The position numbers and the translations under genes are program-made. A DNA stretch of 63,178 nt, the filler included, from Folioceros fuciformis (lineage: Eukaryota): assembly GCA_049999805.1 (NCBI GenBank). It is 4 parts of 4 records of this genome, joined end to end, with 100 filler letters (N's around TTAATTAATTAA, not from the genome) between each part and the next. Parts side by side here need not be neighbours in the genome. Positions count along the whole stretch, not along the records: positions 1 to 21,482 come from JBNGIO010005380.1; 3 more parts are not named here. One strand, given 5' to 3'. Positions 11,071-12,627 of this stretch are shown piece by piece. The notes under the pieces were generated by a model that did not search any database, was not told the DNA's origin, and saw only the letters and a program-made list of their open reading frames with translations. Each line of letters starts with the position of its first letter. The stretch's first letter is position 1.

Positions 11071-11446
11071 CCTTCCTCTAGAGGAAATACTATCTGTGGC
11101 CAGTCTAGTGGACTCCTGGAGCACAAAGTAAACACAAAAAAAACTATTTGCTGCGCGACACTTGATCACGGTAACTGATTGTATTCTCCTGCCTTTCTCC
11201 ACAGTATGAAACAGACTCTCGATTTGAAAGTAGGGAATTTGCCCAAGGCAAGAAAGCCACTGAGTCAGACCCTGATCGGACAGTCTAGCAGATTTTACCC
11301 TGGTCCGAGAGTAAGAGATTATCCTACTGAAAGCTGAGATAGCAGACCTATCGAATGCAAAGAAGTCAAATGATCAACAAAAGGCTCGGCAAATAAAAGA
11401 GCCGGAGATATATTTGAAGGTCTCCCGAGTCTGGAATCCACTGTAC

Positions 11447-12627
11447 CTATTGGATCAAATTCCTGACCTCATCATACAAGACAAGAATCAACGCTGCCCC
11501 AGTTCCCCTGACCATGTTTGAAAAAGCGCCTCTGTAGAAAGATTTGATACCTTCTTTGTTGTAGATATACTTCCAACAGTCCAAAGTGCTTTCAAAAGTG
11601 CGCTGCTGCAGACCTGACTGCATCATCATACGATGCCGAACTGTATCTAAAGGATAGGAAATAAGTCCAGCTGACGTTGTCGCTCCCTGAGCCACAAACC
11701 ATCTTTTCCAAAAGGGCAACTGCTTTGAGTCTTGAGACAAATAGTCCTTCGCAGTGTCGAAACCCCCAAAATAGATGCTGCGATGAACTATCATGCCCTG
11801 CAGGGAAGCTGGAAAGCCTCGGTATATACCTCTGAAGCCATCTTTCTGATAAATAGTCCTCAGGAAGTGAATGATCCCCCGGAACTGACGCGCTTCACCC
11901 TTTCCCAGATCAGCTGCCAAGCGAGTGTGCGCTATATCCAAAGGATAGACAAAGACAAGACTTGTGCATCCTGCGCCGGCCCCTGCAAGAAAGTTGCTGG
12001 GGGCTCTGGACAAACTTCCCCCCTCGTATGGCTTACCAGACGTTAGTAGAGCCCGATATAGATCCTGCAAAAGACAAAAATCCACGGCTAATTCACCTGC
12101 AATCCGTGCGTCTTACACCCAGCATAAGGAGGAAGAGCTACCACATGCATGAGACGCTGGTTACGGAGACTTACTTTGAAGGCAAAATTAAGGGCAAGTG
12201 AGGGATAATATCGCAGCACGCTCGTACCGTTCCCCCTCCACAATGAAAGCACTCCTTCTTCCTTGGATATCCTCATGATGCAATCCAACAACCCCTGGTA
12301 CGGTCTTTTGCCGGCTTTGATGGCCATGTTGCTCTCCTGAGTCTGTAGCACCAGCTTTGCTCGCTCCACAGGCGCCACGATAGTGTGAGCCACTCCACCC
12401 ATGGCAGCTCCAGCAGCTAGATCCTTGGGGAAATTGCTCCATAGCTGCTGCTTGCCAGGATCAAGTTCAGAATTCAAGCCGACTGCATCCTTGACAACCA
12501 AATCTTCTTCCTTGCTGCTAATGGCACCACTACGTATGTCAAGAAAAGTCGAGGGAGGCGTGGTAGCATGAGTTGCCGAAGAGGTGGCAGGCAAAGGGTT
12601 CATTCTAATGTGGAGATGACTTTTCAT
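11447..12627 (-). CDS. PM-ANT1: ADP/ATP carrier of the mitochondrial carrier family, PM-ANT1 type; exons 12627-12175 and 12064-11447
   Basis: DLAAGAAMGGVAHTIVAPVERAKLVLQTQESN; LWRGNGTSVLRYYPSLALNFAFK|DLYR; YPLDTVRHRMMMQSG. GT-AG intron at 12174-12065. Confidence 0.9.

Follow-up and report, generated by a model that had tools for sequence, protein, structure and literature searches.

The window analysed here, a stretch of 63,178 nucleotides (filler included) from the Folioceros fuciformis assembly GCA_049999805.1, carries two closely spaced genes in head-to-tail order on its minus strand, a predicted member of the mitochondrial carrier family and, downstream of it, a predicted ZTL/FKF1-type photoreceptor. 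Their coding features, in the direction of transcription, are the following.

12605-12640, minus strand: out-of-frame uORF of 11 codons in the carrier leader, start context gtgaagATGg, stop TAG at 12607-12605
12175-12627, minus strand: carrier CDS exon 1, first in-frame ATG at 12627; one Pfam Mito_carr stretch (E 9e-21)
12065-12174, minus strand: carrier intron, 110 nt, GT..AG (gtaagt...ttgcag), excised in RNA
11447-12064, minus strand: carrier CDS exon 2, stop TAG at 11449-11447; two Pfam Mito_carr stretches (E 4.5e-44)
9202-11070, minus strand: ZTL/FKF1-type gene, single-exon CDS (622 codons and a stop) with PAS_9, F-box-like and Kelch matches in Pfam

The spliced carrier CDS comprises 357 codons (1071 nt) with a single, terminal stop and 17 internal ATG triplets; a further in-frame ATG is present in exon 1 at 12603. 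When exon 2 alone was used as the query in homology searches, the named top matches were entries for the 'probable ADP,ATP carrier protein At5g56450' in Selaginella, Physcomitrium and seed plants; identities were 65-74%, and 71-74% for the best of them. The three Mito_carr repeats and the closest similarity to At5g56450 orthologues classify the predicted protein as an At5g56450/PM-ANT1-type carrier, in agreement with the PM-ANT assignment made in the first-pass annotation. Judging by the available text of PMC3355725, a plasma-membrane location and ATP/ADP transport are known for PM-ANT1 of Arabidopsis alone. A functional link between PM-ANT1 and the GI-ZTL complex was considered; a preprint on the interaction proteomics of GI (10.1101/162271) names At5g56450 a single time, in its accession list only, and we did not accept this as evidence.

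The downstream protein combines PAS_9 (residues 52-150), F-box-like (213-249) and Kelch-family (281-594) Pfam domains. It is 92% identical to the LOV protein of A. agrestis (621 aa), and its top matches are LOV/adagio/MpFKF proteins with 66-92% identity. The flavin-binding NCRFLQ motif, which defines LOV domains, is invariant in an alignment of eight sequences (N179, C180, R181, F182, L183, Q184). By its domain composition, the protein is thus predicted to belong to the ZTL/FKF1/LKP2 family of LOV-F-box-Kelch photoreceptors, as had been proposed from the DNA at first reading. Its ATG (11070-11068) lies in a strong context (ggaaggATGg, with A at -3 and G at +4) and, in the alignment, falls on the initiator Met of its counterparts from A. 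agrestis, Leiosporoceros, Marchantia and Vitis. The ZTL reading frame remains open for 101 codons upstream of this ATG, a situation found in 0.5% of 5000 shuffles in a test chosen post hoc. An N-terminal extension of ZTL through this open frame was rejected as a candidate: the stretch holds no AUG, does not align in seven orthologues, and carries 1-, 2- and 5-nt indels in one relative (contig X2), and the start Met is common to the orthologues. In A. agrestis, ZTL is a single-copy clock gene (PMC5638080).

Our view of the RNA derives from assembled contigs of four runs, representing four related organisms (A, B, C and D; contigs X1, X2, X8 and X17), the excised carrier intron being the one feature that identifies these contigs as RNA. 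None of the runs with this sequence is recorded as RNA, and besides those compared they include X18-X20 of organism E and further runs of organism C. X1 (5060 nt) matches the window with 0 mismatches, lacks the carrier intron and runs unbroken from 12063 to beyond 8700. The contigs from three related organisms, X2 (3769 nt), X8 (3748 nt) and X17 (2028 nt), likewise have the carrier intron excised and the spacer retained. The intron joint is 12063/12174 (cut +1) in X1 and X2; X8 and X17 have the equivalent joint 12058/12174, in which 5 letters intervene. In all four runs, the spacer is covered collinearly, and the carrier and ZTL stand in the same order and orientation in the contigs of organisms A, B, C and D. 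The gene pair is therefore conserved across four related organisms, and its spacer is fully transcribed. The adjacency and co-assembly that the first-pass annotation had suggested looking for are borne out, with both ORFs on one RNA contig in each of the four runs. Of the sampled words from 9200-12700, X1 contains a fraction of 0.97, and the shortfall matches the 110-nt intron (110/3501), which argues that the spacer cover does not stem from unspliced pre-mRNA or DNA.

How much such contigs say about individual RNA molecules is another matter. A contig spanning two genes presents the same picture whether it arises from one dicistronic mRNA or from an overlap of the carrier 3'UTR with the ZTL 5'UTR. 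X1 extends 779 nt past 8700, well beyond the ends of the relatives' contigs, and contig continuity at this locus is thus not confined to a single mRNA; between 13091 and 13265, X1 provides no cover. The relatives' contigs end near 12692 and near 9000. X2 and X8 contain the two genes and no others: on the carrier side they extend some 70 nt beyond 12692, and on the other side they end roughly 300 nt after the ZTL stop codon. These ends point to about 300-340 nt of ZTL 3'UTR and to a carrier leader of some 130-140 nt.

The region between the two ORFs can be divided as follows; the last two entries are introns proposed in the first-pass annotation.

11071-11446, minus strand: inter-ORF spacer of 376 nt without AUG, transcribed along its whole length and left unspliced in assembled RNA
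11241-11446, minus strand: spacer block that aligns in three of three relatives with at least 85% likeness (X8 and X17 pieces 11241-12058; X2 piece 9212-12063)
11115-11240, minus strand: variable spacer block; X8 and X17 have 123 unlike letters in its place, and X2 shows numerous indels of 1-5 nt
11071-11114, minus strand: leader abutting the ZTL ATG, alignable in three of three relatives, whose alignments restart at 11114
11348-11446, minus strand: putative intron 1, 99 nt, donor TAG/GTACAG, acceptor ...CATTCGATAG/G; ttgcattcgatag ends at 11348; retained in contigs
11116-11298, minus strand: putative intron 2, 183 nt, gtaaaa from 11298; tttgtgctccag ends at 11116; retained in contigs

Within this layout, the block at 11241-11446 holds ATATAT/AATATA at 11414-11408 and a pyrimidine-rich stretch, and the variable block holds AATACA (11185) and a T-run. 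The canonical AATAAA is absent from the spacer, in which one-mismatch variants alone occur, at 11414 and 11185. The earlier reading that neither 'spacer exon' contains an AUG is correct and extends to the entire 376 nt: shuffled sequences contain 4.3 AUGs on average, and none in 0.6% of 5000 shuffles. This absence and the open upstream frame both exceed chance expectation, although the two tests were picked after the data were seen. The first AUG 3' of the carrier stop is consequently that of ZTL. An Rfam search of 10900-11700 returned no match up to E = 1, and the spacer folds in an ordinary manner (z = -0.69; 24 of 100 shuffles fold equally well); neither result hints at a structured RNA or at an IRES-like element. 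Searches of the spacer for evening-element and CCA1-site motifs gave partial matches only (ATATCT at 11411 and one A[AC]AATCT-type motif at 11296).

The proposal that the spacer is parsed by splicing was exact in all of its coordinates. The carrier stop TAG (11449-11447) is directly followed by GTACAG, with the GT at 11446-11445; a 49-nt segment (11347-11299) separates the two putative introns, and 45 nt (11115-11071) precede the ZTL ATG. However, the predicted junctions 11447/11347, 11299/11115 and 11447/11115 are found in none of the four runs, whereas the 110-nt carrier intron is excised in all four; this comparison covers assembled contigs, which can lose rare isoforms. The 123 other letters that replace 11115-11240 in X8 and X17 represent divergence, not excision. 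With 22 GT and 30 AG dinucleotides, the spacer offers 241 GT..AG combinations with lengths of 60-400 nt. Among 4000 rotated dinucleotide shuffles, a GT directly after the stop occurred in 6.2%, a two-intron parse likewise in 6.2%, and a GT together with an in-frame open join in 4.6%; every shuffle with a GT after the stop also permitted the two-intron parse. Seven spacer AGs give in-frame open joins because the ZTL frame is open so far upstream. The splice-like parse of the spacer is therefore no better than chance, and the GT after the stop is by itself the improbable element (6.2%).

These data bear directly on the most far-reaching suggestion, according to which the spacer is spliced (both introns removed, or the 49-nt exon skipped) and the UAG is read through to yield a carrier-LOV-F-box-Kelch protein. 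We give this model next to no chance. The splice motifs and the in-frame link are present as described, since joining 11447 to 11115 does create 15 open codons in frame with ZTL, and the relatives' alignments restart at exactly 11114/11115, adjoining the proposed acceptor. Yet none of the three junctions is seen in the runs in which the true carrier intron is removed, and with a GT behind the stop, chance alone is expected to supply both the parse and the in-frame join. In the unspliced RNA, 379 nt from TAG to ATG (mod 3 = 1, frame +1) place the stop out of frame with ZTL, so that stop read-through of that RNA cannot produce the postulated fusion. Only a hypothetical isoform that skips the exon, present in no contig, would have a continuous carrier-ZTL frame. 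Furthermore, the start Met of ZTL is conserved, and Mito_carr (PF00153) occurs in 0 of 120 ZTL homologues, these being the best 120 of 753 matches (591-723 aa; proteins of 342-1089 aa searched). We know of no precedent for a membrane carrier fused to a cytosolic or nuclear E3 adaptor. The fusion model is thus largely refuted already.

Collectively, it is probable in our judgment that the locus comprises two separate head-to-tail genes, tightly packed, whose transcripts overlap in the 376-nt spacer; most likely, the pair consists of ordinary tightly packed tandem genes. In their host, an Anthoceros-like hornwort, the carrier mRNA would be polyadenylated in the distal spacer, and ZTL would be driven by a promoter of its own, located within the end of the carrier gene or just behind it, and would have a long leader devoid of AUGs. 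The two mRNAs would be translated independently, each from its cap. Some read-through RNA with both ORFs may coexist, as is the case for hundreds of loci in Arabidopsis, and would add little ZTL protein; such an RNA is possible but unproven. The GT/AG 'introns' of the spacer would be chance motifs with no detectable use. We infer the positions of the carrier poly(A) site and of the ZTL start site, and hence the overlap itself; an overlap is to be expected, as the UTR sizes suggested by the relatives' contigs sum to more than 376 nt. The earlier contention that no room remains for a terminator plus a promoter fails if the UTRs overlap in this manner. The arrangement would resemble the overlapping tandem units of compact plant genomes, in which the upstream 3'UTR shares DNA with the downstream promoter and 5'UTR, and in which short-read assemblies fuse both genes in one contig. 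Against an overlap of separate transcripts, one can hold that the X2 and X8 contigs also fit a single dicistronic RNA, that an AUG-free spacer, including the part next to the carrier stop, is what scanning to the ZTL AUG would require, and that the spacer lacks a canonical AATAAA.

A conserved dicistronic mRNA would be one capped transcript reaching from upstream of the carrier to past ZTL, with the spacer unspliced and ZTL translated by reinitiation, the 40S subunits scanning after termination from the carrier UAG to the ZTL AUG. It would account for the joined ORFs and the intact spacer in the contigs of all four runs, for the contig ends of X2 and X8, and for the retention of the pair in four organisms; the ZTL AUG, the first after the carrier stop, also lies in a strong context. 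The 17 internal ATGs of the 357-codon carrier ORF, together with the uORF in its leader, nevertheless exclude leaky scanning to ZTL. Reinitiation after an ORF of this length is inefficient. Both the length of the carrier ORF and its internal AUGs hence make translation of ZTL from a dicistronic RNA unlikely, and as ZTL is single-copy in A. agrestis (PMC5638080), reliance on such an inefficient route would be surprising. Overlapping UTRs, moreover, would look identical in the assemblies, and a two-gene contig does not equal one molecule. We therefore regard a conserved dicistronic mRNA as quite unlikely, and it is very doubtful that the Anthoceros lineage makes one with two full-size ORFs, in which ZTL is produced by reinitiation after the carrier ORF and the spacer is kept free of AUGs. 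In the available text on green-algal bicistrons (Gallaher et al., 2021, PMC7896298; PMC11892635), one finds conserved collinear pairs, unusually short inter-ORF distances, an AUG-free interval between the ORFs and an ORF 2 that starts in a strong context, all of which the hornwort pair shares. In the same sources, these bicistrons are characterized by a short ORF 1 (median 291 nt in A. protothecoides) that starts in a weak context and by a low number of AUGs ahead of ORF 2, which permit leaky scanning, and by inter-ORF medians of 183 and 40 nt (PMC11892635). The sparsity of AUGs ahead of ORF 2 is a hallmark that favors the dicistronic interpretation; by contrast, an ORF 1 of 1071 nt with its internal AUGs rules out leaky scanning, and the spacer of 376 nt exceeds both medians. 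The hornwort pair hence lacks the short-ORF 1, leaky-scanning property and displays the conservation across species; it is known from contigs, not from full-length transcripts or proteomics as in the algae. CDC26-TTM3, described in PMC11892635 as a conserved two-ORF transcript of land plants and green algae with a short first ORF, shows that the bicistron category exists in embryophytes, and the hornwort pair differs from it by its 357-codon first ORF.

Unlikely, too, is a mixed case in which weak termination of the carrier gene adds a constant minority of unspliced read-through RNA to the monocistronic carrier and ZTL mRNAs; this RNA would yield no ZTL and would be degraded by NMD, as happens at read-through loci in Arabidopsis. 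The unbroken RNA cover of the spacer in all four runs and the missing AATAAA agree with it, and so does the comparison with the Arabidopsis read-through loci, as far as the available sections of their description go (Kurihara et al., 2022, PMC9768141). These are close same-strand nuclear genes with intergenic RNA cover, and their first genes are enriched for organelle-type proteins; the first gene of the hornwort pair belongs to the mitochondrial carrier family. For the 271 loci, monocistronic forms were detected for 195 first and 158 second genes, so that separate monocistronic mRNAs would be expected alongside in the hornwort pair. Intergenic splicing was reported there at 158 of the 271 loci; the hornwort pair shows none in four of four runs, as known from contigs alone, and it is conserved in four hornwort organisms, a property that those sections do not mention for the Arabidopsis loci. 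The same sections describe the Arabidopsis bicistronic RNAs as NMD targets, making up about 0.06% of wild-type transcripts, with the second ORF rarely translated in seven of eight tested cases (PMC9768141), a further point against a productive dicistronic mRNA. Contigs look alike for the mixed case and for a pure UTR overlap. The core of the first-pass proposal, a dicistronic or read-through mRNA, thus stands in so far as the pair is co-assembled and the spacer is present in RNA in four of four runs; the splicing and the fusion that it predicted were found in none.

Among the matches listed, the literature on polycistronic expression in hornworts concerns organelles or vectors, and the Iso-Seq papers on hornworts or Anthoceros, judged by title or abstract, do not address hornwort transcript structure. 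Our searches linking ZEITLUPE with bicistronic, or FKF1 with readthrough transcript, returned no publication.

If two tightly packed genes with overlapping transcripts are indeed what we see, the arrangement would be a routine consequence of high gene density. It carries a warning for annotation, as short-read transcript assemblies of hornworts will merge the carrier-ZTL pair, and probably others, into one 'transcript'; likewise, GT/AG motifs beside a stop codon do not justify an intron call without junction reads. A land-plant bicistron with two full-size ORFs would be new, if true, and under a dicistronic mode of expression the output of ZTL would be tied to the transcription and translation of an ATP exporter. 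The sole ZTL/FKF1 gene in a model hornwort lineage apparently has its promoter within some 400 bp or in the neighboring gene itself.

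Domain families and best matches bear out the first-pass annotation in its naming of the two genes. The ZTL/FKF1-type gene (ZTL) is an intronless open reading frame of 622 codons (9205-11070, minus strand) with the families PAS_9, F-box-like and Kelch. Its best match is a 621-aa 'putative LOV domain-containing protein' of Anthoceros agrestis (92% identity), followed by ZTL, adagio and MpFKF proteins from all land-plant groups (66-74%). By this identity, the source would be a hornwort near A. agrestis but distinct from it. The A. agrestis gene is described as clock-associated and single-copy (PMC5638080). 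The carrier gene has coding exons at 12627-12175 and 12064-11450 (minus strand) and three Mito_carr repeats; with only exon 2 as the query, its best named matches are 'probable ADP,ATP carrier protein At5g56450', described as the Arabidopsis plasma-membrane adenine nucleotide carrier PM-ANT1 (PMC3355725). The carrier intron, reading gtaagt...ttttgcag, is the only proven intron of the locus.

Between the carrier stop and the ZTL ATG lies a spacer of 376 nt (11446-11071, minus strand), which had been parsed into two introns. Every coordinate of this parse is exact on the minus strand:

11449-11447, minus strand: carrier stop TAG, followed by GTACAG
End at 11348, minus strand: possible first acceptor, gatag (sequence reading)
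11347-11299, minus strand: putative spacer exon of 49 nt (sequence reading)
11298-11116, minus strand: putative second intron, from the donor gtaaaa to ctccag (sequence reading)
Up to the ZTL ATG at 11070, minus strand: last spacer segment of 45 nt (sequence reading)

The spacer holds 22 GT and 30 AG dinucleotides, and hence 241 GT..AG pairs of 60-400 nt. Among 4000 rotated dinucleotide shuffles of the spacer, 6.2% have a GT directly after the stop and likewise 6.2% permit a two-intron parse of this type, so that any shuffle with that GT permits a parse; in 4.6%, that GT can also be joined to ZTL in frame and without a stop. Such a join is possible at seven different spacer AGs because the ZTL frame is open for 101 codons upstream. 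The putative first donor (TAG/GTACAG) is poor and the first acceptor (CATTCGATAG before G) has no pyrimidine tract; the second donor/acceptor pair is better. The intron parse does not go beyond chance expectation, and the sequence observation, though confirmed, is largely fortuitous.

Sequencing runs of four related organisms (X1, X2, X8 and X17) were compared with positions 8700-13300, all as assembled contigs and not as reads. X1 is the best match: it contains 0.97 of the words sampled from 9200-12700, against 0.07-0.12 for the three other organisms.

X1 contig, 5060 nt: left of 8700 to 12063, then 12174-13090; 0 mismatches to the window
X2 contig, 3769 nt: 9062-12692; carrier intron skipped as in X1
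X8 contig, 3748 nt: 8993-12692; carrier intron skipped as in X1
X17 contig, 2028 nt: 10620-12659; carrier intron skipped as in X1

The 110 nt omitted by X1 have CT..AC ends, which is GT..AG on the gene strand; as this segment is the carrier intron, the contig represents RNA. The 3% of words missing from X1 equal the share of this intron, which suggests that no notable part of the run derives from unspliced precursor or DNA. The spacer is retained in all four runs. X1 is collinear across it, as is X2 apart from small indels at 11118-11178; 123 unlike letters stand in for 11115-11240 in X8 and X17, an equal-length divergence without excision. The joints 11447/11347, 11299/11115 and 11447/11115 are absent from the contigs of all four runs, although contigs lose rare variants and a minor spliced isoform may therefore accompany the main RNA form across the spacer, which is unspliced. 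With the true carrier intron removed in 4/4 runs and the proposed spacer introns used in 0/4, the claim of spacer splicing is not sustained.

Several features of the surroundings deserve mention. In the carrier leader (12605-12640, minus strand), an out-of-frame upstream AUG in strong context (A at -3, G at +4) opens an 11-codon uORF. This short frame runs across the first in-frame ATG of the carrier (12627, in a weak context) and ends 1 nt ahead of the second (12603). Judged from sequence, this uORF could regulate carrier translation or be a sign that 12603 is the true start. At 12692 (minus strand), beside an acceptor-like ttctggcag, the contigs of two relatives cease to match, with 66-77 unlike letters beyond, whereas the X1 contig stays collinear to 13090; the explanation is either simple divergence of the 5'UTR or, in the relatives, use of a leader intron. 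Divergent from the carrier, with coding starts about 550 nt apart, lies a gene with a Rab3 GTPase-activating protein regulatory subunit N-terminus (RAB3GAP2_N; 13183-13950 and 14762-14968, plus strand). An open frame of 511 codons (4127-5659, plus strand) carries an ALOG domain (E 2e-61) of the LSH/ALOG transcription factor family. Located 0.5-1.1 kb past the ZTL stop, an intronless proteasome beta-subunit-like sequence in three shifting frames (8099-8666, plus strand; Pfam Proteasome match 8099-8362; shifts near 8355, 8440 and 8500) looks like a processed pseudogene. The X1 RNA contig apparently covers it, while those of the relatives stop some 300-340 nt after the ZTL stop; the sequence may thus be lineage-specific.

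It had further been envisaged that splicing of the spacer and read-through of the UAG yield a carrier-ZTL fusion protein. Splicing the carrier stop straight to 11115 gives 15 open codons in the ZTL frame; in the unspliced RNA, however, the first bases of TAG and ATG lie 379 nt apart (frame +1), and stop read-through therefore cannot reach ZTL. Of the 120 ZTL homologues listed (591-723 aa, from a search among candidates of 342-1089 aa), not one has a Mito_carr domain, and the translation upstream of the ZTL ATG has no aligning counterpart in the orthologue alignment. In that alignment, the A. agrestis, Leiosporoceros, Marchantia and Vitis proteins have their first Met opposite the one encoded at 11070, and several of them share an MDW/MEW start. 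With the junctions absent in all four runs, the frame lost and the carrier domain missing from the listed homologues, the splicing and fusion mechanism is unsupported, and such a protein is in our view exceedingly improbable.

Most likely, these are two ordinary tandem genes, tightly packed and with overlapping transcripts: the carrier 3'UTR and the ZTL leader would share the spacer, and separate mRNAs would be merged into one contig. About 30 nt of shared sequence suffices for a de Bruijn contig, and a contig spanning two genes is no proof of a single transcript. The proposed RNA across both genes is accordingly compatible with their co-assembly in four organisms, but a single molecule is unproven from contigs. 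The contigs of X2 and X8 stop about 300-340 nt beyond the ZTL stop on one side and about 130-140 nt ahead of the carrier ATG on the other; if the carrier 3'UTR and the ZTL leader have such sizes, they total more than 376 nt, which favours the overlap of two ordinary mRNAs over a dicistronic one. The X1 contig extends 779 nt left of 8700 and, if collinear, reaches 7921, inside a (GCGGAA)n hexamer repeat (7918-7950); its left end is thus probably set by this repeat and not by the end of a transcript. As this extension far exceeds the relatives' contig ends and crosses the proteasome-like pseudogene on the opposite strand, contig continuity exceeds any single mRNA.

All three tests on unusual spacer features were picked post hoc, with the data already seen: the spacer has no AUG (true of only 0.6% of shuffles), within an AUG-free run of 402 nt that is the second longest on the minus strand of the window; no stop interrupts the ZTL frame over the 101 codons upstream of its ATG (11071-11373, minus strand; 0.5% of shuffles); and the relatives' alignments break at 11114/11115, the last 44 nt of the spacer (11114-11071) aligning and the preceding 126 nt not. 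The 101-codon frame, without AUG or similarity to orthologues, is probably due to chance. A spacer without AUG agrees with a long ZTL leader that begins near the carrier stop and equally with an intercistronic region scanned after termination, and so does not decide between them. For this reason, and given the post hoc tests, we retain a true dicistronic mRNA as an unlikely reading, and separate mRNAs with a minority of unproductive read-through RNA as a somewhat less doubtful one. Against the dicistronic reading, leaky scanning cannot bring ribosomes to ZTL past the leader uORF and a carrier frame of 357 codons with 17 internal ATG triplets, and reinitiation is inefficient downstream of an ORF of this length. 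The economical assumption is that ZTL has its own promoter; the ATATAT/AATATA motif at 11414-11408, with a pyrimidine-rich stretch behind it, could be a core promoter.

In Arabidopsis, 271 read-through loci are described whose RNAs make up about 0.06% of wild-type transcripts, are NMD targets and, in seven of eight tested cases, rarely have their second ORF translated (PMC9768141). Their layout is the same as that of the carrier-ZTL pair, but intergenic splicing is frequent there and absent from our contigs. Green-algal bicistrons likewise combine a conserved pair with an AUG-free inter-ORF region; leaky scanning is shown for them, but their first ORFs are short and AUG-poor (PMC7896298, PMC11892635), in contrast to the 357 codons of the carrier. 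The CDC26-TTM3 bicistron, mentioned in PMC11892635 as conserved in plants and algae, is among the closest described systems. Our literature searches found no link of ZTL/FKF1 to a bicistronic or read-through transcript; for hornworts, none of the matches listed dealt with nuclear polycistronic transcripts, all of them concerning organelles or vectors. That the locus is a conserved land-plant bicistron with both ORFs at full size is hardly to be expected; the contigs do show that the carrier-ZTL pair is conserved and that each base of its spacer is present in stable RNA.
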